From contig JACZYS010000004.1 of NCBI GenBank assembly GCA_022570975.1, forward strand, positions 1-28,832: a DNA stretch of 28,832 nt. Direction: 5' to 3'. Shown in pieces: positions 3,343-25,810 of the stretch. The stretch comes from Candidatus Zixiibacteriota bacterium (GTDB lineage: Bacteria; Zixibacteria; MSB-5A5; GN15; FEB-12). The position numbers and the translations under genes are program-made. Every line of letters starts with the position of its first letter. The stretch's first letter is position 1. The notes beneath the pieces are model-generated. The model saw only the letters and a list, made by a program, of their open reading frames with translations, searched no databases and was not told the origin of the DNA.

Positions 3343-3363
3343 ATGGCGGAGAGGCAGGGATTC
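3343..3363 (-). repeat. outer att core: 21-bp copy of the tRNA-Ser 3' end
   Basis: ATGGCGGAGAGGCAGGGATTC is identical to 3648-3668 and 23044-23064. Identity with the inner copy extends to 28 bp (3342-3369 vs 3647-3674). Confidence 0.95.
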
Positions 3364-3647: not shown

Positions 3648-3668
3648 ATGGCGGAGAGGCAGGGATTC
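3648..3668 (-). repeat. inner att core: 21-bp copy of the tRNA-Ser 3' end
   Basis: Exact match to 23044-23064 and 3343-3363. Confidence 0.95.
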
Positions 3669-6896: not shown

Positions 6897-8552
6897 CTAT
6901 TCCCAAGGGTTGAATTTGCCCATGTTGGGGCGGATGCCTTCGTCTGGGGTGTTTGGTGCCGAACCGCCTTTGAAAAAGTAATTTACCAAATATGTTAAAT
7001 CAGCAATATTACCATTACTGGAATCTGCATTGAAATCCAAAATATTACGCGGCCAATAAACATCATCACCACCTTTGAACATATATCTCACCATTGATGT
7101 CAGATCAGCGATATTGCCAGATAAGTCAGCATTAATATCTCCTGGCGTAAATCTCCCCACTTGATCATATGGCATTAGCTGTGCTCTTATACGGTGTTCA
7201 GGTGCAAAGTCTCTCCAAATAAACACCGCCTGACCAGCGTCGTTGATATCACAATCAAAATGGAGCCCATGAATACCTGCAATACCGGGGATATTATTGA
7301 TCCTCATATTATGGCCAACTAAATTTCCAGTTGGATCAACCTTTTGTGCAAATACATCCAATTTTTGAGATGCCCCGTTATCAGGGTGAAGTCGTGCATC
7401 TGACCAGAAAACCAATACATTACCCAGTGAATCACAGGCGAGAGTTGGATGGATAACTTGTTGCAATAAGAGCCATGTGGTATCGGCATCATTTACCCTG
7501 ACAGGGTCATACTTTGGTGTGCCATCTGCATTAAATCCTCGAACCCAGATATGGTTGCGAACCCAATAGAACGAGTTTAGCTGACTTTCGAACCAGACTA
7601 TATAGAAATCTCCATCCGGTTCCATCATCATATCTAGTCTATGAACATTCTCAGTTGCACAATTGGCCGTATCCATGTAGCCGGCCGAACAGTCGGCCAT
7701 CATGGCATCAGTTCGTGGAGTGCCGTCGGCGTTAAAAACTGCATAAAATACATGGGAATACGGTGAACCGTAGTCACTGGCATTCCAGGCTACGGCAAAG
7801 GAATTGTCATCGGCAAGTCCAATTGCTGGTTCACTGAAGATATCATATTTACCTTCATAATTAGGAACTCCCAGAAGGGGATGAGGTAGAAACATTGCAT
7901 TTATAACCGAAGACATGCTATCAATATCTTGATAATATAATCTTATAAGGACTGAATCTTTGGTTACCAGATTTTGATGGGGATATACTTCACAGACCAT
8001 TGCAATAACATTGTTATTATTTATTGCTCCGTAGGGACGGTTAGAAATATAAGGTAAATATTCTGGCTCGCATAGCATACATACTGGATCTTCAGCATGT
8101 GGCGCTCCATTCTCATCAAATAAATATGCGAAAATCCTAGAGAATAATTCCAGAGTGACAGTATCTTTTTCCGCTTTTGTTGATATCAACACTTTTCCAA
8201 TATCGTTGCAATAGATAGGTAGAGAAGCAACACTTTCCCAGATCGAATCAGAGATTGTATCCGGGAGAAAAACTGTTACCGGCTGGAGCTGGTTACCAAA
8301 TTTGTCAAATCTATTGAATTGCTGAAAACTAAATCCTTGACCTAACGTAACGTAATCAATTTCATATAGATTTCCTGCGGCATCAATGGCAACAGAAGGC
8401 CAAACTGATCTATCTGGGTAACCAAGGGTAGTATCATAGCACATAAAATCATCACGAGTTACAAGTGAATCTGCGTTGGCAACTTGAATATAACATATTA
8501 TCAATGACAATATTATTGAAAAAATTATCTGCTTGACTCTTGTTTTTCTCAT
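6897..8552 (-). CDS. secreted beta-propeller-like repeat protein with C-terminal dockerin-like domain
   Basis: Signal peptide; repeated PxxAxDxxGxFxxxW / F(D/N)xxG units; duplicated dockerin-like motif (GDINADLSGNIADLTSMVRYMFKGG...DFNADSSNGNIADLTYLVNYFFKGG). Confidence 0.75.
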   Translation of the reverse strand: MRKTRVKQIIFSIILSLIICYIQVANADSLVTRDDFMCYDTTLGYPDRSVWPSVAIDAAGNLYEIDYVTLGQGFSFQQFNRFDKFGNQLQPVTVFLPDTISDSIWESVASLPIYCNDIGKVLISTKAEKDTVTLELFSRIFAYLFDENGAPHAEDPVCMLCEPEYLPYISNRPYGAINNNNVIAMVCEVYPHQNLVTKDSVLIRLYYQDIDSMSSVINAMFLPHPLLGVPNYEGKYDIFSEPAIGLADDNSFAVAWNASDYGSPYSHVFYAVFNADGTPRTDAMMADCSAGYMDTANCATENVHRLDMMMEPDGDFYIVWFESQLNSFYWVRNHIWVRGFNADGTPKYDPVRVNDADTTWLLLQQVIHPTLACDSLGNVLVFWSDARLHPDNGASQKLDVFAQKVDPTGNLVGHNMRINNIPGIAGIHGLHFDCDINDAGQAVFIWRDFAPEHRIRAQLMPYDQVGRFTPGDINADLSGNIADLTSMVRYMFKGGDDVYWPRNILDFNADSSNGNIADLTYLVNYFFKGGSAPNTPDEGIRPNMGKFNPWE

Positions 8553-8639: not shown

Positions 8640-11453
8640 CTATTTTAACATCACCATTTTCTTGGAATCCTCAAATCCATCAGCTTTCAGGCGATAAAAA
8701 TAGACTCCGGAAGCCACTTGACTGCCAGATTCATTCTTTCCATCCCAAACAACTTCATGATTTCCGGCAGTTATCTGCCCATCATGGAGAGTTCTAACCA
8801 CCTGTCCCAAGATATTGATCACTGAGAGTTCAATCTCTGAGACCTTGGGAATTGAGAAGCTGATAGTGGTTGATGGGTTAAACGGATTTGGGTAGTTGTT
8901 ATGCAAAGAATAAGTTTCCGGAATCAACTCTTCTTTGTTAAGAGTTTTGTAGTAACCGCGGGATTTGAAAAAATATTTTATCTTCTTGCCCTTAATTACT
9001 GAATACTCAGGTATCTTAAACGATAACTGAATCTTTTCACCCGGCTGTATCGTTGCCATATTGCCATCTTCATACGATAATCCGGCAACAAGTTTACCGG
9101 CAACACTATGCACTGCTTCACTTGGTGTAATTCGGTGTTCAGTGAAATCTGTTCCCTGACCAACAAATAAGGCCTGGTAATCTGCCTTATATGATACTTT
9201 CCAGCTAATTTTGGCATTAAATGTTTCACCAAGCTCAATATCAGTTAAATCAGCATACCAGCGAGTGTTTTCGCTTTGGTATTCTCTTGAAGGTATTGAA
9301 CCAAGATAATACCAGTTTCCGTTAATGTCCTGAATCTCAGCAATAATGCTTTCACCCTCTCCACCGGTGTTTTCAAAAGTTATTGTTTTTTTCTGTGGTC
9401 CGCCTCCCGGACCAAGGGCAAAACCGTTCATGACAGTTTCAGAATACTCTCCAGATGCCGGATTTGGGAATGAGAGAATCATGTAGCCCGGCCAGTCAAC
9501 ATCCATCCAATACCCATCTTCTTTACCAATATACTCCATTAAATCTCTACCCCATGAATCAGTTGCAGAAAGTGGTGCAATTGCTTTAGTATAAGTGAAT
9601 ACCTTTCCTTCATTCGATATACCTACTTTTGTGTTTTCATCATATATCACCATCACCAATTCTACTTCGTCAAGAAATGTGATTTCATTTTCCAATTCTC
9701 TTATTTCAAAATGGAAATATCCATCATCTTCTATCAGCCTGTTTGAAAGAGGATAGAAGTCGTTTTTAATTTCAGGATTCAAATTACCCTGTGAATGAGT
9801 GAGGATTGTGTTTTCAAGCACATATCCGGACCCATACCAACTGTAAAGTGTTGGGCATCCTCCTCCTCCTCCTGCAACTCTAACAGTAAACTCACCTCTA
9901 ATAAGAGAAAGAGCACCATATCCGTTACCCATTGCGTCAAGCGAGTTAATTATTAGGGTATCGTTAGTATGTTTAATAACAACTCTGTTGAAAGCTTTGT
10001 GCATTGAGTCTGGCTCTACCTCTATAAATTTGTAGACATCAGTCCCAACTACGTCTGCATCTACGACTAGAAAGCCAACATTATCAAAAACTAAGTTACC
10101 GAGTGAAAACTCTGGCGTTATAGTTACTGATTCAAGTGAACTCGATTCAGCTGCTATTAAAGTATCAGTGGACTTAGATCTAGACCATCTTAGTGTCCCA
10201 CCTTCATAAGAAAATTCTGTTGAAATGCTTTTGGGATCGGTATGTGTTATAACGCTTGAATCAACAGCAAAGCCGGCGTTGATTTCACTAGTTACAACGT
10301 CTGTATATAACGGTGCATTGTTCTTCATAGAAAAGTAATAGCTGTAGTTCTCAGTAGCCACAACCACAACCACAGTATCAAGTTTCCACCAGGCGCGCTC
10401 TTCCACGGTTTTTAGGTAGCCATATGCACCTGCATTGTCATTAGTATCAGCATAATTGGTGCAACCTGTAAAGATGTAGTCATCTTTGATCCTTACTTTG
10501 TAATTTGCGTCGGGATCTGCAGTTACATCAACATCAAAGTCTATATGCAGGAAGTCCGCCGGAAAAGTGGTAGGTGCAGCTGGACCACCTGAGCTTAATG
10601 ATACGTCAATTGTTGTATCAGTAATGTTCGAAATAGTTGGAGTACCAGAATAATCAGTCGTCGTGAAACTATTGTAGTCCAGTTCAGAATCAAACGCCAC
10701 CGTAAATTCATAACTGTCCTCGTGCTTGAAGTTCAGACTATCCAGCACCAAAGTTGCGGTTGCAGTCCCACCTACATAAGTAGAATCCATAATCCCAGTG
10801 GTGGTCAGCTTTACTGCTGGTTCTTCGTAATACCTATATCCAGAGGTGAGAGTAGGATAATAATCTGTACTTCCTCCTGAAGTTGTATTGTAGCGATTTA
10901 TGAAAGCTCCGCTTGAATCTTTGAATTCCAAATGAACGCTATCTGTATAACCCAGACATTGAGTCAAATAGATATTTATAGTAAATATATCTATATTATC
11001 AAATTCATCTGGAGTTGATGGAATCATCTTGATTTTGAGATACTTCCCAGACGGATCACCGTAGATAATTGAATCAAGTGTTGAAGCAGTATCTGTATAT
11101 AACCAATCAATTTCATATTCTAATGCAGTGTGTCCTGTAGCATTGATTTTTAGATATATGAATAGTTCACTAACATCTGTATGAGCATCAGAATTGAAAG
11201 TGAATGTATGTGAAGATTGTTCAAGGAATTCACCTCCAAATTGAATTTCGTCGCTGGTCATAAGATATTCACATGAGCCACAGGCATCTAAAGCCATGCT
11301 CTGGTCATATCCTTTCTGCGCATTAACATTCACCGATGTAAGAACTAGTAAAAGAATTGACGTCAAAATAAGTCTTTTAAACATTTTTCCTCCCATGTTA
11401 AAATTGTCGTTTAGATTCTGTTTTTCAAAAAAATTAAAGAAAGAAATCTCCAT
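8640..11453 (-). CDS. large secreted beta-rich protein with cohesin-like modules, a GGCPxLYxW domain and a C-terminal FlgD-Ig/T9SS-like domain (alternative start 11384)
   Basis: Signal peptide MFKRLILTSILLLVLTSVNVNA begins at 11384; GGGGGCPTLYSWYGSGYVLENTIL motif; C-terminal LHNNYPNPFNPSTTISFSIP. The cohesin-like call is a by-eye fold guess. Confidence 0.7.
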   Translation of the reverse strand: MEISFFNFFEKQNLNDNFNMGGKMFKRLILTSILLLVLTSVNVNAQKGYDQSMALDACGSCEYLMTSDEIQFGGEFLEQSSHTFTFNSDAHTDVSELFIYLKINATGHTALEYEIDWLYTDTASTLDSIIYGDPSGKYLKIKMIPSTPDEFDNIDIFTINIYLTQCLGYTDSVHLEFKDSSGAFINRYNTTSGGSTDYYPTLTSGYRYYEEPAVKLTTTGIMDSTYVGGTATATLVLDSLNFKHEDSYEFTVAFDSELDYNSFTTTDYSGTPTISNITDTTIDVSLSSGGPAAPTTFPADFLHIDFDVDVTADPDANYKVRIKDDYIFTGCTNYADTNDNAGAYGYLKTVEERAWWKLDTVVVVVATENYSYYFSMKNNAPLYTDVVTSEINAGFAVDSSVITHTDPKSISTEFSYEGGTLRWSRSKSTDTLIAAESSSLESVTITPEFSLGNLVFDNVGFLVVDADVVGTDVYKFIEVEPDSMHKAFNRVVIKHTNDTLIINSLDAMGNGYGALSLIRGEFTVRVAGGGGGCPTLYSWYGSGYVLENTILTHSQGNLNPEIKNDFYPLSNRLIEDDGYFHFEIRELENEITFLDEVELVMVIYDENTKVGISNEGKVFTYTKAIAPLSATDSWGRDLMEYIGKEDGYWMDVDWPGYMILSFPNPASGEYSETVMNGFALGPGGGPQKKTITFENTGGEGESIIAEIQDINGNWYYLGSIPSREYQSENTRWYADLTDIELGETFNAKISWKVSYKADYQALFVGQGTDFTEHRITPSEAVHSVAGKLVAGLSYEDGNMATIQPGEKIQLSFKIPEYSVIKGKKIKYFFKSRGYYKTLNKEELIPETYSLHNNYPNPFNPSTTISFSIPKVSEIELSVINILGQVVRTLHDGQITAGNHEVVWDGKNESGSQVASGVYFYRLKADGFEDSKKMVMLK

Positions 11454-11539
11454 CGCACCTCCTCATTCGAAAAGATATTTATGTCTATTGCAATGTCATG
11501 AACCGGGAGATACGAAATTCTCCACAACCCATCATAGTT

Positions 11540-11574
11540 AATATATGAGCAGGGGTGACAGTTTCTGGCAGTGG
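11540..11574 (-). promoter_or_regulatory. operator-promoter for the secreted cluster: TGCCA-N5-TGTCA-N10-TATATT
   Basis: The minus strand reads CCACTGCCA GAAAC TGTCA CCCCTGCTCA TATATT, the same layout as at 17842-17875 and 17909-17941. Confidence 0.65.
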
Positions 11575-11673
11575 GATTGAAAATAATTGAAAAAAAGTGA
11601 AGAAATTTAGGTGATTGAGATTTTCCGCAACCAAGACCATTAATAATTGACTTTTACGTAATTTATCTTCTAG

Positions 11674-11696
11674 CCACTGCCAAATTCTGGCAGTGG
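11674..11696. promoter_or_regulatory. perfect palindromic operator CCACTGCCA-N5-TGGCAGTGG
   Basis: 9-bp perfect inverted repeat with a 5-bp spacer, 83 bp upstream of the 11780 start. No TATATT at +10 on either side. Confidence 0.7.
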
Positions 11697-11779
11697 ACTT
11701 CCAGTTTTTTTCATTTTCAGTTAGTAAATTTGTGATTTTTGGGTATATTTCTATGTATAACAGGAATTAGGACCGAATT

Positions 11780-14700
11780 ATGAAATCAAATTATTACAGT
11801 TTCGAAAAAATTATATCAAAAAATCTATTTTGTGAGTCTTGGTTAGCAGTTGACAAGGAATCAGGCGAGAATGTCTTCGTAAAGATTCCACTTTCAACAT
11901 CTGAAAGAGCCGATGTAAGAATAGAAGAAATTCTATACAATTCCTTTCAGAATCAGAAAGTTATTGGAAATGGAAGAATAGTAACTGCAAGGCGAAAAAC
12001 CAAAGAGAGCAAGAGACTTCAAATAGAATATCCATATCTGAGTGAAGAAATCTATATTCCATTGTCAAGCGAAAAATTTTGGAGTAATCTTGAAAGCATT
12101 TTACCTCAAATGGCAGTACTGCTTGATTACTTGCACTTGTACGGACTTGTTCACTGTGATATTAAGTTGAATAATTTCCTGGTTAAATCTACAGCAAATG
12201 GACCTCAATTGTATCTGAATGACTTAGATTTTTTAACAAAAGATAAATCAATTCCAAGGGGGATGATATTTGGAACAAGAGACCATATTCCTCCAGAAAT
12301 AGATTCAAATGAAATTGTATTATGTTCGTCAGATAATTACTCCATAGGAGCAATGTTAAAGAAATGCTTATCAGAGTTGAATAGAGAATTAGATAAATCC
12401 GTTCCCGAACAGACACAATTCTCGATAAATGAACTCGCAAATCTCTTATCGAATAAAGATCCATACAATAGACCAAGAATCCTCATGGATGCGTTGGTGG
12501 ATGCAAGTATTATCGATGAAGAGTCCAGATCAAATTATAATAGGGCAGTTATTGCAATGAAACTCTTGTCATCTTTTAAGTTTTTTCTTAGAAATGGTGA
12601 TAGCAATACTAATGAGTTAATGCAACATTTCTTTGATAAAAACAATATAATGGGAATTTCTGATGAACTAAAAAATGACTTTCAGTTATCATTGAATTCG
12701 AATAGATCTGCTACTATTAGAGTGTTCAAGAAGTTTTTCAAGATCGCATCTATTGCTAGGCATGGAGATTACTGGCATTTTGAATGCAAAGATTCTGATA
12801 TGTATTCTATCTTGGTTGAACTGGATAAAATCAAAAACACAAATGTCTTGCAGTTTCAGGATTCTTGCGACTTAAGAGAATTACAATATATCATCAAGAT
12901 AGTTGACAACTCAATTGTTGATGGAAACTACGAAAAGGCATACCATCTCAGTATCCATTTATTGGGAGCTTTTGAGAATCAAAATCTATCAAAGAGTGCT
13001 TCTCTTTATGAAAACATCCTAATCAAACTTGTGTCTCTTTCGAGAGATTTGAACAGAAATGGAGAGTTGAGAAAATTTCTACTCAAACTTTACACTTTGA
13101 GAAAGAGGCATGGAAATAGGGACATAAATTTATTATATGAATACAATACTCAGTTGTTATTGATTAGTTTTTTCATTAGAGCAAAGCGAATCATAAAAAT
13201 AGGAAAATTAATTTCAGAAAAACGTTCAGATCAAATTTCGCTAAGTAAATTCTTGGTGCAAGAGGCCTGGGTCAAGATTCACGAAGAGCATTACGAGGAA
13301 GCAAGGATTGTATTAAATAATTGTCAAACAATGGTTAATAGAATAGATGATAGAACACTTCTAATTGGAATTTATTATTCTTTAGGAATATTGGATTGGA
13401 GAAGAGGTAAGATAGAATCTTCAACTGATAATTTGTTGAGAGCATTTAATATAGCAGAAGAAGAAGACCATCTTTCAAAATCAGAATCAGTATCATTATT
13501 GACTGGGTTAATAATGCTATTAATAAATCAAATGGAAATAAATAAAGCAATAGAGATTGGAAAATCGGCAGTATTAGAAATCTCTGAAACCAGAGACAAG
13601 TCAAAGCTATCAAGAATTTATATACTTATGGCAACCGCATATAGTTTGATTCCCAATGAAGCAAAAGCGAGGTATTGGATTCAAAAAGCTTATCCTTACT
13701 TAAGAGTTAGATATAACAGACCACTTATAATCTATTACTATTTAATTCTTGGAATGATTGAAATAGATAGTTTCCATCTTAATAAAGCAAAGATTATCTT
13801 GTGCAATGCTTTAGAGCTTGCAGCTCCTAAAGAAAATGATGTTAATACTTGCGCAATTTACCAACAGCTTGCAAAAATTTCCTTTTACGAAGGGAAGAAA
13901 CTAGATTTTGAAAAATATTTACAACATGCAAGACAAATTAGCAAATCCATAAAAGATAAAGTTTCATATTTTGAAATTGAAAGTATGTCAGCATTATTTG
14001 ATTTTTATTACTCTCAAGAAGCTTGTCTAGAAAATGTTGAATTATCTTTTATTAAGCTTGTCAGCAATAGCGCTCATAATTATTCTTCAATTCTCCTCTT
14101 CCATATTTTACTAAACTCGACTTCCAAGAACGATAGAGAATTAATTGAAAAAATGTCAAACAAGAAAGTTACGATCTCTTTGAATTCAAATATTAGGCTG
14201 TTTAAGATGATAAGCTTAGTTCAGAAGTCAAATGAAAAGGATATTTCAAGAATTGACCTGAAGTTAAATTTCCTTAAGGAGGCTTACAAAGTATCGAATG
14301 AATCTGGAAATAGATTCAATTCTCTACTCCTTTCACAAAAAATCGCACAGTTGTATCTGAAAAAAGGGGAAACAAGACAAGCAAGAAAATACTTGGAAAA
14401 TGCAAAGAAGATTGCTGGGTTTATTGGGAATAGTTTTTTCTTAGACAAAATTGAGAAAAATATAGAGGAAATTAAATTGACAAATAGAGCAGTAGGACAG
14501 GAGCTTGAAGGATACAAACGTATTGGAAAAATTCTTGGTGATATTGATAATTATGACAAATCTATCAAAGAAGTCATAAAATTTGCAGTTTCTGCTACTG
14601 GAGCAGAAAGAGGTGTTTTGTTCCTAAAGAACATGCATGAAGATAAATTACGGATGGAAGCCTATGTAAATTGTGACGAAGAGAGCATTGAGGATATCAT

Positions 14701-15955
14701 CGATTTTAGCACCAACTTACCTAATAGCGTTCTAATAAATAATGAAACGCTTACAATTGAGGATGCTACAAAAGACAAAAGGACAAGGGATTACAAGAGT
14801 ATTATCCAGAACAATATTCTATCGGTACAATGTACTCCGATTTATTATGATGAGGGTCTATTGGGAGTGATATATTTGGATAACCACACAATTCCTGCAT
14901 TATTCGAAGAAAAAGATTTGGAGTATATCAAATCAATGTCAAATATTATTGCTATAATGATTATGGTTTTACGGGGACAAAAGGACCTTAAATATATAAA
15001 CAAGCAACTTTCGGAAGACTACAACAAAGCTAAAGGATCTATTGGATTCATATCAGAAAATAAGATTGTATTAGACATGTTCAAAATGATTTCAAAATTT
15101 GCTAAAACAAACGTTCCAATCTTAATAATTGGAGAAAGTGGCACTGGGAAAGAAATTATTTCCAACATGATACATGAACTTAGCGATAGAAAAGGTAAAC
15201 CATTCTTGAAACTTAACTGTGCAGCATTGCCAGCAAACCTTATTGAAAGTGAACTCTTTGGAGTTGCTAAGAAAGTAGCTACAGGTGTTGATGCAAGGGA
15301 GGGGAAATTTAAAGCAGCAGACGGAGGCACCCTCTTATTAGATGAGATAGGTGACATGCCTATGGAAATTCAGGCCAAAGTGTTAAGAGTTTTAGAATAT
15401 CAAGAATTTCAACCTGTTGGAAGTAATATTACTGTATACACCGATGTCAGATTTATTTATGCAACCAACAAAGATTTGAAAGAATTAATTAGGTTAGGGA
15501 AATTTCGAGAAGATTTGTATAGTAGAATACACTCAATAGATATTAAGATCCCTCCTTTAAGAGAGCGAGTTGATGACATCTTATTGCTACTTGATAAATA
15601 CATAAAATTTTACTCAAATATTAAACCTGCTCCTAGATTCTCCAATGATGCGATAGAATGTTTAATGAACTATCATTGGCCAAGTAATGTGAGAGAACTA
15701 AAAAACTTCGTTGAAAGATGTTGTATATTATATCCTGGAGATGAAATAAGTAAAGGGATGCTTCCTGAGGAATTTCAATCTCAAGAAATTAATGATAGAG
15801 ATTTGAACAAAAAAATAATTTCAAGTGAAATATCGAAATATAGGCTGGCATTAAATAGATTTGCTGGAAATGAATCTAAGTCGGCGAAATATTTGAACAT
15901 ACCGCTATCAACTTTTAGAAGAAGACTTAAAAAATATAATTTAGATAAAAAGTAA
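11780..15955 (+). CDS. Ser/Thr kinase-like / TPR / GAF / sigma54 AAA+ / Fis-HTH fusion enhancer-binding protein
   Basis: N-terminal kinase motifs (VFVK, HCDIKLNN, GTRDHIPPE, SDNYSIG); helical TPR-like middle; GAF (GAERGVLFL, GVIYLDN); AAA+ motifs GESGTGKE, NCAA, ESELFG, GGTLLLDEIG, RFIYATN, FREDLY, WPSNVRELKN; C-terminal HTH. Confidence 0.9.
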   Translation: MKSNYYSFEKIISKNLFCESWLAVDKESGENVFVKIPLSTSERADVRIEEILYNSFQNQKVIGNGRIVTARRKTKESKRLQIEYPYLSEEIYIPLSSEKFWSNLESILPQMAVLLDYLHLYGLVHCDIKLNNFLVKSTANGPQLYLNDLDFLTKDKSIPRGMIFGTRDHIPPEIDSNEIVLCSSDNYSIGAMLKKCLSELNRELDKSVPEQTQFSINELANLLSNKDPYNRPRILMDALVDASIIDEESRSNYNRAVIAMKLLSSFKFFLRNGDSNTNELMQHFFDKNNIMGISDELKNDFQLSLNSNRSATIRVFKKFFKIASIARHGDYWHFECKDSDMYSILVELDKIKNTNVLQFQDSCDLRELQYIIKIVDNSIVDGNYEKAYHLSIHLLGAFENQNLSKSASLYENILIKLVSLSRDLNRNGELRKFLLKLYTLRKRHGNRDINLLYEYNTQLLLISFFIRAKRIIKIGKLISEKRSDQISLSKFLVQEAWVKIHEEHYEEARIVLNNCQTMVNRIDDRTLLIGIYYSLGILDWRRGKIESSTDNLLRAFNIAEEEDHLSKSESVSLLTGLIMLLINQMEINKAIEIGKSAVLEISETRDKSKLSRIYILMATAYSLIPNEAKARYWIQKAYPYLRVRYNRPLIIYYYLILGMIEIDSFHLNKAKIILCNALELAAPKENDVNTCAIYQQLAKISFYEGKKLDFEKYLQHARQISKSIKDKVSYFEIESMSALFDFYYSQEACLENVELSFIKLVSNSAHNYSSILLFHILLNSTSKNDRELIEKMSNKKVTISLNSNIRLFKMISLVQKSNEKDISRIDLKLNFLKEAYKVSNESGNRFNSLLLSQKIAQLYLKKGETRQARKYLENAKKIAGFIGNSFFLDKIEKNIEEIKLTNRAVGQELEGYKRIGKILGDIDNYDKSIKEVIKFAVSATGAERGVLFLKNMHEDKLRMEAYVNCDEESIEDIIDFSTNLPNSVLINNETLTIEDATKDKRTRDYKSIIQNNILSVQCTPIYYDEGLLGVIYLDNHTIPALFEEKDLEYIKSMSNIIAIMIMVLRGQKDLKYINKQLSEDYNKAKGSIGFISENKIVLDMFKMISKFAKTNVPILIIGESGTGKEIISNMIHELSDRKGKPFLKLNCAALPANLIESELFGVAKKVATGVDAREGKFKAADGGTLLLDEIGDMPMEIQAKVLRVLEYQEFQPVGSNITVYTDVRFIYATNKDLKELIRLGKFREDLYSRIHSIDIKIPPLRERVDDILLLLDKYIKFYSNIKPAPRFSNDAIECLMNYHWPSNVRELKNFVERCCILYPGDEISKGMLPEEFQSQEINDRDLNKKIISSEISKYRLALNRFAGNESKSAKYLNIPLSTFRRRLKKYNLDKK

Positions 15956-16028
15956 CAGCCCTCAAATTTTACCACATCATTATTTTCTTGCCAAAGTTGG
16001 TTAAGCTAAGTCATTAGCTATCAACAAT

Positions 16029-16049
16029 AGAATTCATTCTTTGAATTCT
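16029..16049. promoter_or_regulatory. candidate upstream activator sequence (AGAATTCA-N5-TGAATTCT)
   Basis: 8-bp inverted repeat about 105-125 bp upstream of the -24 element. AT-rich, so a chance match is possible. Confidence 0.3.
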
Positions 16050-16152
16050 TCGGTTAAATAATTGGCAAATCTTAATTAACGACAAAGAGCCAAAAGTCTC
16101 TATGTCTTTGTACCCAATTCACTTATCAACATATTCCTGCGCTTAAAAATCT

Positions 16153-16168
16153 CGGCACCTTTTTTGAA
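16153..16168 (+). promoter_or_regulatory. sigma54-type -24/-12 promoter (CGGCAC-N5-TTGAA)
   Basis: GG at 16154-55 and G at 16166 have the canonical spacing, with A in place of C at -12. The site follows a sigma54 activator gene and precedes an AGGAGG RBS at 16208-16213. Confidence 0.65.
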
Positions 16169-16218
16169 TAGCCTCTTAAAGTCAACTAGAGGATCAACAT
16201 TTATTCAAGGAGGTAGCC

Positions 16219-16467
16219 GTGATGAGAAGGATGCTAATCTTATCAGTATCATTTTGCATTGTGCTCTCACTGATAGTTGGATCAGTTCTTGTTCCAACTG
16301 ATTTACATGCGGGACAGGGTGGTGGACTTCCCCCTCCGCCAGATACAACCGGAACTGACAGTTATATAGGTGGTGGGGATGCTGAAAAAATACAATTTGA
16401 AGAACCAACAAGTGAAGAACTTTCACTTACCGACTTGCTTCTTTTGTATTTCGATTTAATTCTTTAA
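16219..16467 (+). CDS. small exported peptide/protein (82 aa)
   Basis: Strong RBS; signal-peptide-like N-terminus ending ...TDLHA; Gly/Pro-rich acidic middle; Leu-rich C-terminal tail; followed by a terminator. Confidence 0.8.
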   Translation: MMRRMLILSVSFCIVLSLIVGSVLVPTDLHAGQGGGLPPPPDTTGTDSYIGGGDAEKIQFEEPTSEELSLTDLLLLYFDLIL

Positions 16468-16472
16468 ACATT

Positions 16473-16499
16473 GGGGGCAATTAAACTGCCCCCTTTTTT
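16473..16499 (+). terminator. intrinsic terminator after the peptide gene
   Basis: GGGGGCA-ATTAAAC-TGCCCCC followed by TTTTTT. Confidence 0.75.
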
Positions 16500-16511
16500 A
16501 TTGAGGTCATT

Positions 16512-17132
16512 ATGAATCCTTCTGAAAAAATATTATTGCTAATTAACTTGCTTAATTCAAAATCTGATGTAAGCCTACATGAAATAATGGAGAAATGTAA
16601 AATTGCTAAAAGAACTGCCTATAGATATCTTAACTCACTTTCGGAGTATAACATTCCTGTTTACTTTGATAAGGATGTCCTGGGCTACCGACTGACAAGG
16701 AAATCATCAATTCACAATTCTAGTTTGTCTGAAAAAGACTATCTACTTGCCATAATCTGCTTAAAAATGGTAGAATGTAATGTGAGCATAGACTATAGAA
16801 ATTCAATCAAGAATGTTATACTAAAACTTTTAATTAATAATACATTGAATATTGAACATGCATTAGAATTGATTGAACAAGAATTTGATCCTGCAAATCT
16901 AAAGACACATGACTTTTCTGAACTTATGTCTTCAGTCTTGATTGTGTCGGCTATTTCTTCTAAGAGAAAAATTCGTTTATACAAGTATACATCAGAAGAC
17001 AAGAATGTTACGGATATAATTCTCAGCCCAACATTGAACTTTGAAAATCAATGGAGGGTAAGCGAAAATAAAGCAAATCATGAATTTTCTGTACAACTTA
17101 AAGATATCAAGAAGGTAGAAGTTCTGCCATAA
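16512..17132 (+). CDS. YafY-like winged-HTH regulator with degenerate WYL-like C-terminal domain
   Basis: N-terminal HTH (LLNSKSDVSLHEIMEKCKIAKRTAYRYLNSL...GYRL). The C-terminal AISSKRKIRLYKY...LSPTLNFENQWRV...KDIKKVEVL follows the WYL-domain pattern. No WCX domain. Confidence 0.65.
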   Translation: MNPSEKILLLINLLNSKSDVSLHEIMEKCKIAKRTAYRYLNSLSEYNIPVYFDKDVLGYRLTRKSSIHNSSLSEKDYLLAIICLKMVECNVSIDYRNSIKNVILKLLINNTLNIEHALELIEQEFDPANLKTHDFSELMSSVLIVSAISSKRKIRLYKYTSEDKNVTDIILSPTLNFENQWRVSENKANHEFSVQLKDIKKVEVLP

Positions 17133-17704
17133 GTAAAATTGAAGGGAAAAAAGAAAGTAAAATTGAGAACAAGTATGTTAGATTAATCCAGTTGATATTT
17201 AATCTTGAAATTAATATTGAAAAGATTTGTATAGCAACCAATCTTAACTAAATGACAAGTTTTATTATTCTCATCTTTCTTAAGTCGCGCAGAAACTTCA
17301 AGTTTACCTGTATAATCAGGTCTTTCAACTTTGAATTCTAATTCATCTATTTTCGTTATCCTCCTTTTAAATCTTTGAATTTATTTTTCAGAGCGTCTTG
17401 GATTTTTCAGGATAGATATCATTTTCAAGAAAATTTGCCCAGAACGCCATCTACAACAATTTTGCTGGCTTTTCAGATTTTGAAAAGGAAATTCTTACTT
17501 AACCTGAAAAATAGTGATCAGTGACAAATAGATTTGAGTCTATAGAAGTAAAGAAATGTATATTATTAGCCATGCATTGAAAAAAGGTTGATGGAGAACT
17601 TGAAATTCAAGTAAAATTTATGAATATAGTAAGAATTTTGGAGAATCATAGTAAACTTGAGTCTATCATCTTTATGGCTATGCAAATGATTAGGAAAGAA
17701 GGTA

Positions 17705-17734
17705 TTGACATTCTTAGCTTATTTTCGATATTAT
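17705..17734 (+). promoter_or_regulatory. sigma70-like promoter TTGACA-N18-TATTAT
   Basis: Perfect -35 at 17705-17710 and near-consensus -10 at 17729-17734. Confidence 0.5.
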
Positions 17735-17740
17735 AGTAAT

Positions 17741-17823
17741 ACCAAAAAGACCCCCCTCTGTCTCATCCTAGAGACAGCCCTGCGTTGGGCAGGATTATTT
17801 AATTAGTCCTGCCCTATTTTTTT
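17741..17823 (+). ncRNA. candidate small RNA of about 80 nt (two hairpins ending in a U-tract)
   Basis: Promoter upstream; hairpin CTGTCTC/GAGACAG (17758-17777); GGGCAGGA/TCCTGCCC stem (17787-17814) followed by 7 T; no ORF. The start position is approximate. Confidence 0.35.
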
Positions 17824-17841
17824 CAATCAAATACTAAAGTC

Positions 17842-17875
17842 AATATACTCTAACCACTGCCAAATACTGGCAGTG
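17842..17875 (-). promoter_or_regulatory. leftward operator-promoter TGCCA-N5-TGGCA-N10-TATATT
   Basis: The minus strand reads CACTGCCA GTATT TGGCA GTGGTTAGAG TATATT. Confidence 0.65.
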
Positions 17876-17908
17876 AATGATGAAGAAAAATGAAATATTT
17901 TATTTTCT

Positions 17909-17941
17909 ACTGCCATATTCTGGCAGTGAGTTGTTTATATT
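17909..17941 (+). promoter_or_regulatory. rightward operator-promoter TGCCA-N5-TGGCA-N10-TATATT for the TerY-P-like operon
   Basis: ACTGCCA TATTC TGGCA GTGAGTTGTT TATATT, ending 43 bp before the 17985 ORF. Confidence 0.7.
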
Positions 17942-17984
17942 TCAATCTATACTACATTGAGGTCAATTTATTAAGTAAAATTGT

Positions 17985-19109
17985 TTGGTTTACAAACCCC
18001 GCAAGCATGGTTTTTGGTCCCATATATTTAGTTTGGTATTTGTGTTTGGGTTCTTTCTCAGTGCTCTAACAACAGTCATTTACCACTCGGTATTTAAAGA
18101 ATCAAGACGTGTGAGTATATCTGCTAATGCCGTTCAATTGAATTCAGAGTTTCAATTAATTCAAGGACGCATTCTCTTTCAAGCAGAACCTGTTTATAAC
18201 GTAACCGTTATAGTAGATTTGGTTGACTCCCTAAGTCACAAAAGCCCCCTTAGTAGTACAGTAACAAACAAATCGGGAGAATTTCTACTTGATTCGATAC
18301 CAACCACGATCGGAAATAGAAAAGTTACAGAAATCGAGATAAATGCTAAGGGCAATTTGGTTGTTAAGGGAGACTCAATTACTGTTTCAGGAACGGAAAC
18401 AATCACTATAAGTGGTAAAGGTTCACAAGAGATTGTTAAAATTTCTATTTGGGTAATTGTAATTCTTCCGGCAATATTTCTATTAAGTTTCATCGTCCCG
18501 TTTCTTACCTTATCACCGCGCTGGAAGTATGGGTTCTCGATTAGTTTAGCAATTATATTGACTCTATCAATGATTATCGCAATATCAGGAGGTATAAGTA
18601 ATATCAATAAGAATTACTCATCTGATACTGAGAAAGTGATTTCTCTTGGATACGCATCATTATTTCATGGAACTTACGTTGAAGGAGTTCCATCAGAATG
18701 GCTGTTTTCAATAACCTCCCTACAATTAGATACAAAATCAGATAATTCGGGGAATGTTACAGTAAAAGGGTTCGGAGTGCCACTTTGGGTCCTGTTAATT
18801 GCCGTAGTTGGCGCTGGACTATTAACTGTATCTATAATAGTATCTGAAATAAAGGATCGCCCAAAATTCCATCTGATTGAAAAAAATGTACCTGATGATG
18901 AGGAATTTAAAGAATTTAGGGCTAGACTAGAACGAATCGTTCGACATCAATTCTACATTCTCTTTTCCCCTATAGGTGCAATCTTTGTTTATCAGATGCT
19001 AGTTACTGCCGATGCGGCATACAACTCTACTACAGTAGCGTTAGCGGCATTCGGAGCAGGAGCATCTTTAAATGTAATACTGGACTACGCAATAACATCT
19101 TACCGATGA
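17985..19109 (+). CDS. membrane protein (about six TM segments) with an extracytoplasmic Ig/carboxypeptidase-regulatory-like domain
   Basis: Hydrophobic segments flank IQGRILFQAEPVYNVTV...TVTNKSGEFLLDSIP. TTG start with no clear RBS. The stop overlaps the next ATG (ATGA). Confidence 0.6.
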   Translation: MVYKPRKHGFWSHIFSLVFVFGFFLSALTTVIYHSVFKESRRVSISANAVQLNSEFQLIQGRILFQAEPVYNVTVIVDLVDSLSHKSPLSSTVTNKSGEFLLDSIPTTIGNRKVTEIEINAKGNLVVKGDSITVSGTETITISGKGSQEIVKISIWVIVILPAIFLLSFIVPFLTLSPRWKYGFSISLAIILTLSMIIAISGGISNINKNYSSDTEKVISLGYASLFHGTYVEGVPSEWLFSITSLQLDTKSDNSGNVTVKGFGVPLWVLLIAVVGAGLLTVSIIVSEIKDRPKFHLIEKNVPDDEEFKEFRARLERIVRHQFYILFSPIGAIFVYQMLVTADAAYNSTTVALAAFGAGASLNVILDYAITSYR

Positions 19110-19486
19110 AGATTGATAGCTCTACAAACATCACTGCCGGTTTAAAGAAAGGTCTGGAACTATTAACTTCTTTAGATAATGATAAGGAAGCCATTCATTA
19201 TCTCCGTCCAGTTGTTTTACTATTTACAGACGGTGGACATAACACTGGATGCTTTCCCTATAAGACAGCAGATAAAATCAAAGAGATTGCTGATTTGGTA
19301 ACCGTGGCATTCGGTCAAGATGCTGACACAAAGCTTCTCAAGAAATTGGCTTCAACTGAACAGCATTTCTACAGATGTGACAGCGGTAAAGATCTTAGAC
19401 AATTCATGGCTTCTGTCGGGAAAACCATGACAATGACTTATGCCGACAACCAGAACACCACTGATCAATTAACTCAATTACAATAA
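19106..19486 (+). pseudogene. terY: TerY-like vWA domain, C-terminal half only
   Basis: TNITAGL and RPVVLLFTDGG (MIDAS Thr and Asp elements) and VAFGQDADTKLLKKLAS are present. The N-terminal DxSxS motif is missing, and none appears in about 45 in-frame codons read upstream. Confidence 0.6.
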
Positions 19487-19498
19487 AGGATAATTGCT

Positions 19499-20428
19499 AT
19501 GTTATATTCAAATAATCAAGAACAGCTTATTTATAGATATCAGCCCGCACCTATTCGTTGCTCGGAAGATTTGCTTAGTGAATTGATAGAATTCTCACAA
19601 ATCTCGACTGATATCGTTCATGAACCATTTCGAGATGAATCGAATTGGAATATGGGTTTATCTACAACAACAGGTAATGTAAGAGATGACAATCAAGATT
19701 ATGGTTTATGTTTTAACATTGGAAAATATCAAGTCATGATTGTTGCTGATGGAATGGGTGGCCCGCCTTATGGAAAGAGGGCATCTTATAGTGTTGTAAA
19801 AGCCAGTGCATTTTCAATCATGAAAGATCTTGGGAAACGATATAAAATCTTCAAACCAGTATTGAGGGATGTTGTAAAGCAAGCTGTTAGAACTGCTTCA
19901 ATGGCTTTATCAGCAAAAGCAGATAAGGTAGATAGCTACAAAAAAGGCTTAAGAACAACTCTTATTGTCATAATCGCTGATAAACATGAATATGTTTATG
20001 GATATATTGGAGACGGCAGCATAATTCTATTTCAAGGTAATTCATTTATTCACTTACTTAATCCCCATAAAGCAAATATGTATATTCCTAACCTATTGAC
20101 AGCATCTTTAGGTCCCACAATACATGGTGAAATGGTACTCGGTTCACATGAGAGAAAACCAAATGATTTCTTAATTACCGGAACAGATGGGATATTTGAT
20201 AGACTTGAAGCAAATCCTGAAGATTTCCCTCAAGGAACTAACAATTTCTTATCTCTTCTTATGAACAGTGTACTTGAGTCAGACGGTAATCTAAAGGAAT
20301 TATCAAAACAGACAATAAATGAACTTGCAGATTTTCAAGACGAACAAGGTTATATTTGTAATGACAATCTCACCCTTGGTTTACTTGGAAACTATAAAAA
20401 GCCAGAAGTAACTTGTCAAAAAGTATAG
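19499..20428 (+). CDS. PP2C/PPM-family protein phosphatase (TerY-P triad component)
   Basis: GNVRDDNQD, VADGMGG, TTL, IGDGS, TASLG, TDGIFD and DNLT motifs. Confidence 0.88.
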   Translation: MLYSNNQEQLIYRYQPAPIRCSEDLLSELIEFSQISTDIVHEPFRDESNWNMGLSTTTGNVRDDNQDYGLCFNIGKYQVMIVADGMGGPPYGKRASYSVVKASAFSIMKDLGKRYKIFKPVLRDVVKQAVRTASMALSAKADKVDSYKKGLRTTLIVIIADKHEYVYGYIGDGSIILFQGNSFIHLLNPHKANMYIPNLLTASLGPTIHGEMVLGSHERKPNDFLITGTDGIFDRLEANPEDFPQGTNNFLSLLMNSVLESDGNLKELSKQTINELADFQDEQGYICNDNLTLGLLGNYKKPEVTCQKV

Positions 20429-20436
20429 GTGGAGTG

Positions 20437-21663
20437 ATGTCAATACTTCATTCAAAAATTAAAACAAAGTCTGGCAATAAGCTTCTAATCGAAAGAGAAT
20501 TATCTTTCGGCGGTCAAGGAAGAGTCTATCTTGCACATAAAATAAAAACCAGTAAAGCTGTTGTTGTAAAGATATTCAATAATAAATTCAATAGGAAAAT
20601 TCTTCTTGAAAGAATTGAGTTTCTAATTTCAATTCAGGAAAAGAATTCATTTGAGGGGATTGAATTACCTTTTGATCTGATAGAAACTAAAGATTTGATA
20701 GGTCATTGTACTGCCTATATCGATTCAATCTCTTTGGAAGACTATTTAATGAATTCAACAAGTTCGATTACAGAGAGATTGGAAACTGCCTTGTCAATAG
20801 CCAAGCAATTTAAACATCTTCATGGGTTAGGCATTGCTCATGGAGACATCAGAGCCCAGAATTTTCTTATTCAAACAGAAAAAAGGAATTTGAATGTTCA
20901 TTGCATTGATATAGATAATTTTAATCATGCCTCTGCTCCTGAACCGAATATGGTAGGTGAAGCTCTTTACTTGTCACCTGAGCAAAGGGATAAGCTCAGT
21001 AATGATACGTATTATCCTCCAACGATTGAAACTGATCTTTATCAACTTGGTATTTTGTTTCATGAAATAGTGCTACTTCTTCATCCTGCTCATGGCAATG
21101 ACAATACTCAAGAAGAGCTTGAAAACGCTATGAGTGGTGTATGGAAACTCGATCCAACAGTTTCAAAGGAAACAAAGAACATCTCAATATCCATTCTCAA
21201 TAATCAATTATGTAATCTCTTCAGGTTGGCACTGGTCCAATGTCCCAAAAAACGAACAACAACTGATAATTGGATTAAAGCATTTCAAAATGCAATAGAG
21301 AGAATATATCATTGTCCAAAATGTAACACACCTACAATTGTTGATAGTTCAAAGATATTTTGTCCTCAAGGCCATCTGTTTGAACTACTCAGTTTAGCAA
21401 ATGCAAAAACTAACAAGAAATTGTGTCTAAATGGTAAGTCATTTTTTATTGGCAGGGCTCAGTTTAATGATGATATCAGAATTAGCAACAAGCAATTGCT
21501 CATAAGCAGAATCGGTCCTGAACTTTGGGTTGAACATATTGGAACTAATCCGACTAAGTACAAGCAAAATGGAGTATGGCTTGATTTACCAAAGTACAAA
21601 AAGATTAAACTATGCAAGAATGATTTTATAAAAATAATGAAACATGAGTTAAAAATAATTTGA
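20437..21663 (+). CDS. Ser/Thr protein kinase with Zn-ribbon and FHA-like C-terminus (TerY-P triad component)
   Basis: GGQGRVY, VVVK, HGDIRAQN, IDIDN, YLSPE and TDLYQLG motifs; CPKC...CPQGH; FFIGR...ISNKQ...GTNPT. ATG 20437 has AGGTGGAG upstream and is preferred over TTG 20413. Confidence 0.88.
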   Translation: MSILHSKIKTKSGNKLLIERELSFGGQGRVYLAHKIKTSKAVVVKIFNNKFNRKILLERIEFLISIQEKNSFEGIELPFDLIETKDLIGHCTAYIDSISLEDYLMNSTSSITERLETALSIAKQFKHLHGLGIAHGDIRAQNFLIQTEKRNLNVHCIDIDNFNHASAPEPNMVGEALYLSPEQRDKLSNDTYYPPTIETDLYQLGILFHEIVLLLHPAHGNDNTQEELENAMSGVWKLDPTVSKETKNISISILNNQLCNLFRLALVQCPKKRTTTDNWIKAFQNAIERIYHCPKCNTPTIVDSSKIFCPQGHLFELLSLANAKTNKKLCLNGKSFFIGRAQFNDDIRISNKQLLISRIGPELWVEHIGTNPTKYKQNGVWLDLPKYKKIKLCKNDFIKIMKHELKII

Positions 21664-21670
21664 TATAGCC

Positions 21671-21871
21671 ATGCCTAAAAACCTTCTCACACCTCAAGAA
21701 TTAGCCGATGAACTTGGAGTCAAAATCTCTACAGTTTATCATTGGTCTCACATCGGGTATATCCCTATTGTGAAGCTAGGAAACCTTTTGAGATTTCGGA
21801 GAAGCTCAGTTGAAAAGTGGATAGAGAAAAAGGAGAAGAAAGGGGGGCGGAGAGCAGTAGAGATTTTATGA
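21671..21871 (+). CDS. xis: excisionase / helix-turn-helix recombination directionality factor
   Basis: LLTPQELADELGVKISTVYHW...IPIVKLGNLLRFRRSSVEKW is a typical Xis-family HTH, and the gene is adjacent to the integrase. Confidence 0.85.
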   Translation: MPKNLLTPQELADELGVKISTVYHWSHIGYIPIVKLGNLLRFRRSSVEKWIEKKEKKGGRRAVEIL

Positions 21872-22972: not shown

Positions 22973-23044
22973 CACTTTCAATGAGAATATAGAGAAATGG
23001 TAAGTTATTGTCAACTAGTTAGATGGAATATGTGATGTTATTTA

Positions 23045-23133
23045 TGGCGGAGAGGCAGGGATTCGAACCCTGGATAGGGGTTACCTATACACGCTTTCCA
23101 GGCGTGCGCCTTCAACCACTCGGCCACCTCTCC
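23045..23133 (-). tRNA. tRNA-Ser (GGA), 89 nt, CCA encoded
   Basis: Acceptor stem GGAGAGG/CCTCTCC; anticodon arm CACGC-CTGGAAA-GCGTG; long variable arm; T arm CAGGG-TTCGAAT-CCCTG; 3' GCCA. Confidence 0.97.
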
Positions 23134-25198: not shown

Positions 25199-25615
25199 TC
25201 AATCACAAAGAACAGAGCTTATTTCAGTCAAAAGCCCAATTAAGTCTACCGGTTTATAAATTACCTTGTTCGCTCCCATGAATCCGGCCTCATTGACCAG
25301 TTTTTCTGTTGCGTTGCCGGTTATAATAAAAACAGGTACACCGGGGAGTTTTTCTTTCATCTTTGGAATTAAGTCAAGCCCCGAGACCTCCGGCATAATT
25401 ATGTCAACTGTAATAAGGTCAAAATGATCTGTATTGATTTTTTCCAGTGCCTGGGTTCCGTCTGAAGCAACTTCTATCTTAAGAGCCTGAGATATTTCAC
25501 ACATCTCTTTAAAAGCTTGCTGAACAGGAAGTTCATCATCTATTATAAGCAGCTTGAACGGCTTACCCCTGCGCTGGGCGGTGATGTTTAATTTCTCAAG
25601 AACTTCTACAGGCAT
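25199..25615 (-). CDS. single-domain response regulator (receiver)
   Basis: LLIIDDE, VDIIMPEVSG, IITGNA, VIYKPV. Confidence 0.88.
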   Translation of the reverse strand: MPVEVLEKLNITAQRRGKPFKLLIIDDELPVQQAFKEMCEISQALKIEVASDGTQALEKINTDHFDLITVDIIMPEVSGLDLIPKMKEKLPGVPVFIITGNATEKLVNEAGFMGANKVIYKPVDLIGLLTEISSVLCD

Positions 25616-25810
25616 CTGACACCTTTTTGTTTTTTATCTATGTTGTTCAGAAACAAATATTACTCGCTTATCTATCGTACACGACAATAGGTGCCAGTAC
25701 TTTTGGGTTCAATATCTGAACATATTCCTATTAGTTATATCGTCAGAATACGGGATGAGTTTATGCTGATTTGTTATTGTATTATAACGGAATGTCAGCA
25801 TATGACAATT

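Follow-up and report, generated by a model that had tools for sequence, protein, structure and literature searches.

Putative palindromic promoters of the WYL-activator type on a genomic island of a Candidatus Zixiibacteriota bacterium, with a short WYL-family protein as their probable activator

Contig JACZYS010000004.1 of a Candidatus Zixiibacteriota bacterium carries four intergenic copies of a palindrome, three of which stand at a fixed distance from a TATATT hexamer. These elements very probably belong to the promoter class of the WYL-family activators DriD and PafBC. We propose that they are activator-dependent promoters used by P0002, a short WYL-family regulator encoded between them, and we put the probability of this reading, which is built on sequence comparison, at roughly 0.65. 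The proposal draws on the motif with its fixed spacing and conservation, on the modeled fold of P0002 and on the joint distribution of site and protein. The window, that is, the whole stretch of DNA that was analyzed, is a complete 28.8-kb contig (28,832 nucleotides) of a metagenome-assembled genome (2.34 Mb, 86% complete) from marine sediment samples. For comparison, 160 genomes of the same order were used, including 43 module-linked loci and 30 recA loci that were compared in detail, as well as an alignment of 40 P0002 homologues.

The initial annotation of this DNA had described a core, TG(C/A)CA-N5-TGGCA, that occurs four times and always between genes. This description is confirmed: with up to one mismatch, TGCCA-N5-TGGCA has four matches in the window against 0.59 expected, and none of 100 shuffled sequences reached four. 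The full unit is longer than the core first described. It is a 21-bp palindrome, CACTGCCA-N5-TGGCAGTG, which has three matches in the window with up to three mismatches against 0.03 expected. Three copies are strong and one is degenerate (Table 1). The triplets read GCC...GGC at sites 2 to 4 and GCC...GTC at site 1, with the G and C of the triplets kept throughout. The degenerate site 1 reads CACTGCCAGAAACTGTCACCC in the leftward direction; its distal half is intact, and its proximal half is TGTCACCC, a variant that is seen again together with a 7-nt gap and TATATT in two relatives (loci L087 and L079). An Rfam scan of the window returned tRNA alone, with no RNA family at the sites or at 17.1-17.8 kb.

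The hexamer TATATT lies 10 nt past the TG(G/T)CA core at sites 1, 3 and 4, as had been noted, which is equivalent to 7 nt past the 21-mer. The three promoter directions that had been assigned are also correct: leftward toward the gene at 8640-11453, leftward into the region at 17.1-17.8 kb, and rightward toward the operon that begins at 17985. Sites 3 and 4 are arranged back to back, 53 bp apart, and the A/T-rich DNA between them offers an UP-element position to both promoters. Site 2 has no TANNNT at 7-8 nt on either side; in the leftward direction, the only candidates are GATAAA, 7 nt away, and TAAATT, 9 nt away. A T-rich/AAGTC flank of the upstream type is located to the right of site 2, at 11696-11712, and site 2 thus probably faces left as well. 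It might act as an additional leftward promoter or have an auxiliary role. Apart from sites 3 and 4, half-site-only promoters of the PafBC kind were not found in the window. A sequence that weakly resembles the motif, AATTGTCA-N5-TGACATTC followed after 8 nt by TACAAT, is present on the minus strand at 25790-25810, 161 nt ahead of the response-regulator gene at 25199-25615. This match could be due to chance, given that a reversed-genome control yields seven matches at the same stringency.

Is the motif private to the island? The initial annotation had regarded it as the mark of an island-wide regulon. This holds for the exact sequence, as CTGCCA-N5-TGGCAG occurs in the 2.34-Mb genome at the window sites only. 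It does not hold for the motif class, which is found across the order and also at recA. The palindrome is common in the 160 genomes. Among the 96 flanks of 48 unique relative sites, TANNNT starts 8 nt past the palindrome in 27 and 7 nt past it in 7, whereas the other offsets account for about 1.7 flanks each. The order-wide composite reads nACTGNCA-N5-TGNCAGTn, followed by 8 (sometimes 7) nt and TANNNT. A matrix of 40 oriented promoters consists of a T-rich tract with AAGTTC, the palindrome nACTGNCA(G)AWT(C)TGNCAGTn, a 7-8-nt gap and TAtatT. These 40 promoters contain no -35-like (TTGACA-like) consensus; palindrome positions 7-13 occupy the -35 place, and a sigma-70 scan detects none of the promoters. 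A fixed distance between the palindrome and a housekeeping -10 hexamer is a property both of the relatives (7-8 nt) and of three window sites (7 nt). The initial annotation had placed an operator at the -35 position. The position stands, given that the palindrome spans approximately -41 to -20 and that the spacing recurs in relatives, but an architecture of the PafBC/DriD type suggests that an activator, and not a repressor, uses the site.

This composite is also the promoter element of recA. It was found at a constant position in 28 of 30 recA loci of the order, where it reads ACTGACA-N5-TGTCAG, 8 nt, TATTTT. The recA promoter of the source genome is GACTGACA-N5-TGACAGTC, 8 nt, TATATT, with its palindrome at C71:7343-7363. 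The strict recA-type pattern is present in 107 of 160 genomes and has no match in the reversed control. At the 30 recA loci, the triplets are GAC in 28 and GTC in 26. The source genome has a second recA-type composite at C99:1335-1355 (CACTGACC-N5-TGTCAGTG, 8 nt, TATAAT), located 24 nt ahead of an uncharacterized open reading frame (ORF) of 139 residues (C99:1393-1812). In this one genome, the gap is 8 nt at recA and at the C99 site versus 7 nt on the island. In a genome that lacks the regulator module described below (G013), near-identical 21-mers, CACTGACAGATCCTGACAGTG, lie at or near contig ends (C18:6, C57:25, C47:8464, C68:2954 and C24:13934) and may belong to a multi-copy repeat.

A full-length WYL regulator with HTH_11, WYL and WCX domains (WCX, E = 4e-16) is encoded once in the source genome, at C161:1339-2298 (319 residues). 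This protein is likely to be the DNA-damage activator of recA. The LexA_DNA_bind domain (PF01726) was not found in the source genome, which is weak evidence at 86% completeness, and the DNA-damage response of the order is probably WYL-driven. In one relative (G035, locus L057, 8940-12992) and also in loci L058 and L059, a palindrome with GATATT and, beyond it, a 230-residue HTH_11 paralogue come after an HTH_11-WYL-WCX gene, with a convergent recN gene. This tandem is reminiscent of pafB-pafC, and similar long-short pairs occur in several genomes of family f4.

How does this promoter type relate to those already described? To our knowledge, detailed accounts of WYL activators that replace -35 recognition come from PafBC of actinobacteria and DriD of Caulobacter only. 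In mycobacteria, the PafBC mechanism is called 'sigma adaptation' and operates at the -26 element, formerly RecA-NDp. The PafBC motif is tGTCgg(N10)tA(N3)T, whose 5' part lies at -23 to -28 in promoters without a -35 element, and PafBC wedges between DNA and sigma region 4, with PafB R46 and R50 reading the GTC triplet (PMC8635444). The DriD site, ATACGAC(X)7GTCGTAT, is a 21-bp pseudo-palindrome that overlaps the -35 place at a fixed distance from the -10 element in promoters without a -35 element, and the DriD geometry given in the initial annotation was accurate (PMC13004042).

DriD of Caulobacter crescentus is a homodimeric activator with a winged helix-turn-helix (wHTH), a three-helix bundle, WYL and WCX. 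As in DriD, the motif of the present study extends over 21 bp with a G-N-C N7 G-N-C register, lies over the -35 place at a fixed distance from the -10 box in promoters without a -35 element, and offers an A/T-rich upstream region to the C-terminal domain of the RNA polymerase alpha subunit. Unlike DriD, it has CACTG...CAGTG flanks in place of ATAC...GTAT and, on the island, C/G-centred triplets. P0002 also comes from a different lineage and is a protein of 206 residues with WRV for WYL and no WCX, and its predicted targets include, beyond repair genes, secreted proteins and a kinase/phosphatase operon. The recA-type sites resemble those of PafBC in the GTC-N12-TANNNT spacing, the element at -28 to -23, the lack of a -35 element and recA as a target. 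In relatives, the proximal part reads TGNCAG(N10)TANNNT, with N9 instead of N10 in the window; the island triplet is located 11 nt from TANNNT, not 12 nt as in PafBC, leaving a gap that is 1 nt shorter. Residues R34 and R38 of P0002 match the R-x3-R pattern of PafB R46/R50. However, PafBC is a heterodimer on a non-palindromic half-site and is bound only together with polymerase, whereas the full palindrome observed here implies two DNA-bound wHTH domains, as in DriD.

Which protein recognizes the island sites? The initial annotation had favored the 206-residue protein as the best candidate, and this choice gains support from both fold and distribution. Pfam detects HTH_11 only (E = 2.2e-7), with Pfam WYL below threshold, and a PDB sequence profile search with the P0002 alignment gave no WYL match at E < 1; the fold search alone found them. 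An AlphaFold (AF2) model of P0002 from the 40 homologues (mean predicted local distance difference test score, 88.6) places a helical bundle at residues 74-149, after the winged HTH, and a six-stranded barrel at 153-205. When this model was compared with the PDB by Foldseek, the 24 best matches were DriD, BrxR, PafBC and CapW (approximately 217-225 aligned columns, probability 1.00), with DriD chains as the best matches and BrxR/CapW at ranks 7-23. By its modeled fold, P0002 is a WYL-family regulator. Recognition-helix residues R34 and R38 are invariant in the 40 homologues. The W-Y-L position reads W-R-V, with only F177 and W181 close to invariant. No WCX match was found in P0002, whose chain ends at residue 206 straight past the barrel. 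The Atlas neighbors of P0002 are clusters of HTH_11/WYL proteins of about 200 residues, mostly from Bacteroidota; together with the T9SS tails, they suggest an affinity to that group.

P0002 belongs to a conserved module together with a 1391-residue AAA+ protein and a small exported peptide. The AAA+ protein is encoded in at least 80 of the 160 genomes, and the module is thus not peculiar to this island. Its presence tracks one subclass of the sites. Of the 80 module-bearing genomes, 22 have the strict C-centred composite, ACTGCCA-N5-TGNCAG-N9/10-TANNNT, as against 0 of the 80 module-free genomes, whereas the recA-type composite is indifferent to the module (55/80 with and 52/80 without). The two site types differ in three respects: the middle base of the distal triplet is C at 13 of 20 module-type sites and A at 28 of 30 recA-type sites, the spacer GC content is 0.35 versus 0.67, and a 7-nt gap is found in 7/20 versus 1/30. 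In 20 of 43 loci, the 330 nt that precede the AAA+ gene contain the core palindrome (about 0.005 per locus is expected by chance), mostly oriented away from that gene. The motif class is thus an order-wide promoter type, of which only the C/G-centred subclass tracks the island module. Because this version is confined to genomes with the short WYL regulator, it most likely marks the small regulon of that regulator.

The gene for P0002 follows the AAA+ gene at approximately 550-600 bp in 42 of 43 loci. Since the two proteins occur together so regularly, co-occurrence cannot tell them apart as binders, and it is the fold and the promoter architecture that favor P0002 within the module. Helix conservation does not identify the binder either: the HTH_8 and HTH_11 helices are both conserved, and loss of the motif is not cleanly mirrored in either of them. 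The AAA+ protein retains Walker motifs and arginine fingers in the 43 homologues, and its GAFTGA position reads ESELFGVAKKVATGV, with xVATGV kept in 43/43. In about 40 of 43 loci, a sigma-54-like promoter, (C/T)GGCA(C/T)-N5-TTTG(A/T/C)W, precedes the peptide gene at a constant position. It is likely to be the target of the AAA+ protein, and no palindrome lies upstream of the window copy. In loci L045, L042 and L066-L105, it lies about 185-206 nt past the AAA+ stop codon, and the GC of its -12 element is mostly GA or GT. In the stretch 16473-16511, an intrinsic terminator, GGGGGCA...TGCCCCC plus T6, ends 9 nt ahead of the start codon of the P0002 gene, so that expression of P0002 may require transcription to pass this terminator from the sigma-54-like promoter of the peptide gene. 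Across the 43 loci, the peptide ORF encodes about 75-90 residues with a signal peptide ending in ...A(D/E)G, a G/P-rich GG.PP.PP segment, DTTG, an acidic part and a hydrophobic C-tail. Its sequence is poorly conserved, and its position and pattern are constant.

From these observations we infer binding, activation over repression and the choice of P0002 over its paralogue. In the proposed mechanism, a P0002 dimer would bind the palindromes as a winged-helix activator of the DriD/PafBC kind. At three of the four sites, the proximal half-site TGNCAGTG lies 7 nt upstream of the -10 hexamer, and a protein bound there would cover the region from about -41 to -20. The promoters would consist of the -10 box and the A/T-rich upstream tract, with no -35 element, and the housekeeping RNA polymerase would be recruited or adapted by the bound activator. 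Three outputs are predicted. Transcription starting near 11533 would run leftward through the cluster of proteins exported by the type IX secretion system (T9SS), and transcription starting near 17948 would run rightward through the operon that encodes a membrane protein, vWA, PP2C, kinase and excisionase. A third transcript would start at about 17835 and run leftward through DNA in which no clear ORF was found.

Several observations weigh against this proposal. The island spacing of 7 nt departs from the 8 nt of recA and PafBC, and site 2 has no proper -10 box. At 23 of 43 module loci, no exact core precedes the AAA+ gene, and the exact C-centred composite is found in just 22 of 80 module genomes. 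The genomes compared are kin, with matches to this composite spread over 16 genera, and the Fisher p value of about 9e-8 is therefore overstated, although its direction is clear. P0002 has no WCX and has WRV in place of WYL, which makes both dimer formation on the palindrome and control by a ligand hypothetical. The recognition helix of P0002 (RTAYRY) is close to that of the full-length regulator (ERSIYRD), and the two wHTH domains share 35% identity over 62 residues, such that the full-length protein could bind the same sites. Moreover, certain WYL proteins, such as BrxR and CapW, are repressors. BrxR and CapW control BREX (bacteriophage exclusion) and CBASS (cyclic oligonucleotide-based antiphage signaling system) defense loci and resemble the present case in that a WYL-family regulator stands beside accessory or defense-like operons on mobile DNA and palindromes are involved. 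They differ in that they repress, need no fixed register with a -10 element and keep a WCX-type dimer domain.

The main competing explanation, which we consider unlikely, assigns the island sites to the full-length HTH_11-WYL-WCX regulator. In that case, DNA damage would induce the island genes, and the role of P0002 at these sites would be that of a competitor, an anti-activator or a partner subunit instead of the activator. The full-length protein has all three DriD/PafBC domains, among them the WCX that P0002 lacks, and single-copy orthologues in 127 of 160 genomes; the recA composite belongs to the same motif class, the wHTH domains of the two WYL proteins are alike, and some relatives have a short HTH_11 paralogue directly behind the long WYL gene, an arrangement like that of pafB-pafC. 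However, C-centred composites are absent from all 80 module-free genomes, most of which have the full-length regulator and recA-type sites. The two kinds of site also differ at their centers, A/T at recA (26-28 of 30 loci) versus C/G on the island, and in their gap within one and the same genome.

It is improbable that the palindromes serve the HTH_8 of the AAA+ protein as enhancers or operators, acting through sigma-54 or, in a TyrR-like manner, at sigma-70 promoters. As with the upstream activating sequences of NtrC-type bacterial enhancer-binding proteins, which are often paired palindromes, sites are located upstream of the gene for the regulator itself (20/43 loci) and of targets, with a Fis-type HTH in the adjacent gene. 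The association with the C-centred sites is as strict for the AAA+ protein as for P0002, and the HTH_8 helix is conserved. Yet no GG-N10-GC promoter, expected 70-150 bp downstream of an enhancer, lies past any of the four palindromes, and a fixed 7-8-nt distance to the -10 box is not expected of an upstream activating sequence. In addition, the one conserved sigma-54-like promoter of the module has no upstream palindrome, the palindrome class is found at recA in genomes without the AAA+ protein (for example, G001), and the GAFTGA loop is not intact throughout the family. The nearest sigma-54 fits beside the palindromes, TGGCAG-N5-TTCCA and TTGAA, lack the GC at -12 and are not conserved. An SOS-type operator for LexA or another repressor over ordinary promoters is highly improbable. 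The CTG...CAG ends recall the LexA box of Escherichia coli, and the palindrome precedes recA and overlaps the promoter core. However, the spacing is CTG-N11-CAG instead of CTGT-N8-ACAG, the -10 box is not accompanied by a -35 element, and a strict distance to the -10 box is typical of polymerase-contacting activators; the failure to detect LexA_DNA_bind adds little, given the completeness of the genome. Least probable of all is a structural role as terminator hairpins, recombination sites or ends of mobile repeats. Site 4 scored as terminator-like, and the similar 21-mers of G013 are found at several contig ends, but no T-run follows sites 1-3 and Rfam finds nothing at the sites. Neither the -10 box at fixed distance nor the intergenic upstream positions nor the association with recA fit such a role.

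Table 1. Coordinates of the palindromic sites, the regulators and the surrounding genes in the window
Feature	Position	Strand	Remarks
Site 1	11553-11573	-	Degenerate
-10 box TATATT of site 1	11540-11545	-	7 nt past site 1; predicted start near 11533
Site 2	11675-11695		Perfect 21-bp palindrome; no strand assigned; 95 nt ahead of the kinase-AAA+ gene start
Site 3	17855-17875	-	Perfect palindrome, leftward-facing
-10 box TATATT of site 3	17842-17847	-	7 nt past site 3; predicted start near 17835
Spacer between divergent sites 3 and 4	17876-17907		32 bp, A/T-rich; UP-element position for both promoters
Site 4	17908-17928	+	One mismatch, rightward-facing
-10 box TATATT of site 4	17936-17941	+	7 nt past site 4; predicted start near 17948
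P0002, short WYL-family regulator	16512-17132	+	206 residues; proposed binder; wHTH, helical bundle and WYL-like beta-barrel, no WCX
Pkinase-TPR-GAF-AAA+(Sigma54_activat)-HTH_8 protein	11780-15955	+	1391 residues; constant partner of P0002; GAFTGA replaced by KVATGV
Sigma-54-like promoter CGGCAC-N5-TTTGAA	16153-16168	+	Ahead of the peptide gene
Exported peptide gene	16219-16467	+	82 residues; between the two regulators; position conserved in the module
Secreted cluster	8640-11453, 6897-8552, 3908-6862	-	T9SS-tailed protein genes, reached leftward from site 1
Rightward operon	17985-21871	+	Past site 4; membrane protein, vWA fragment, PP2C, Ser/Thr kinase, HTH_17 excisionase-like gene

The genes on either side of the sites suggest what P0002 would control. 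The minus-strand cluster encodes a 937-residue protein and a 984-residue S8 subtilase, both of which carry T9SS sorting tails, plus a 551-residue protein. The rightward operon abuts an integrase and tRNA-Ser. The island is bounded by 21-bp direct repeats of the 3' end of tRNA-Ser(GGA) at 3343-3363 and 3648-3668, with a third set of coordinates at 23044-23064, and the repeats at 3343 and 3648 are evidence that the island is integrated. The three-gene module also adjoins a tRNA-Ser (GCT) and the FapA/response-regulator cluster in G021 and G024 (L042, 8357-8447; L052, 2164-2254), but in inverted orientation and with no integrase in between. An ORF search of 17133-17850, the approximately 700 bp between the P0002 gene and site 3, returned fragments only and no convincing ORF. 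Two hairpins lie in this stretch, one a strong terminator on the plus strand at 17787-17814 and the other at about 17745-17775. The corresponding leftward promoter of G046 and G047 precedes an ORF of 114-129 residues, raising the possibility that a gene has decayed at this place in the window.

The promoter kind itself is already known. What is new is its lineage and its location at recA, where the palindrome of DriD is joined to the register of PafBC, and a WCX-less paralogue with its own site subclass. Also new are the link of this paralogue with an exported peptide and a kinase-AAA+ regulator of giant size, and the wiring to T9SS cargo and a TerY-P-like excisionase operon on an integrated island. 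Finding the PafBC register and the DriD palindrome in one recA promoter type of a distant lineage suggests that the architecture is old and general. More tentatively, short WCX-less WYL proteins could constitute a second promoter code, orthogonal to the DNA-damage code and marked by a C-centred distal triplet. It would sit at the bottom of a cascade from the peptide through the AAA+ protein and the sigma-54-like promoter, and would switch T9SS proteases and a TerY-P-like operon that ends in an excisionase gene. If this doubtful cascade were true, a peptide signal would jointly control secretion, a defense-like module and excision of the island.

The island can be viewed as a natural experiment on private WYL specificity and on function without WCX, as the main differences between its sites and those of recA are a single base in each half-site and 1 nt in the spacing. 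For the order as a whole, the composite nACTGNCA-N5-TGNCAGTn plus 7-8 nt plus TANNNT provides an annotation rule that predicts regulated promoters, and hence transcription starts, in uncultured genomes.

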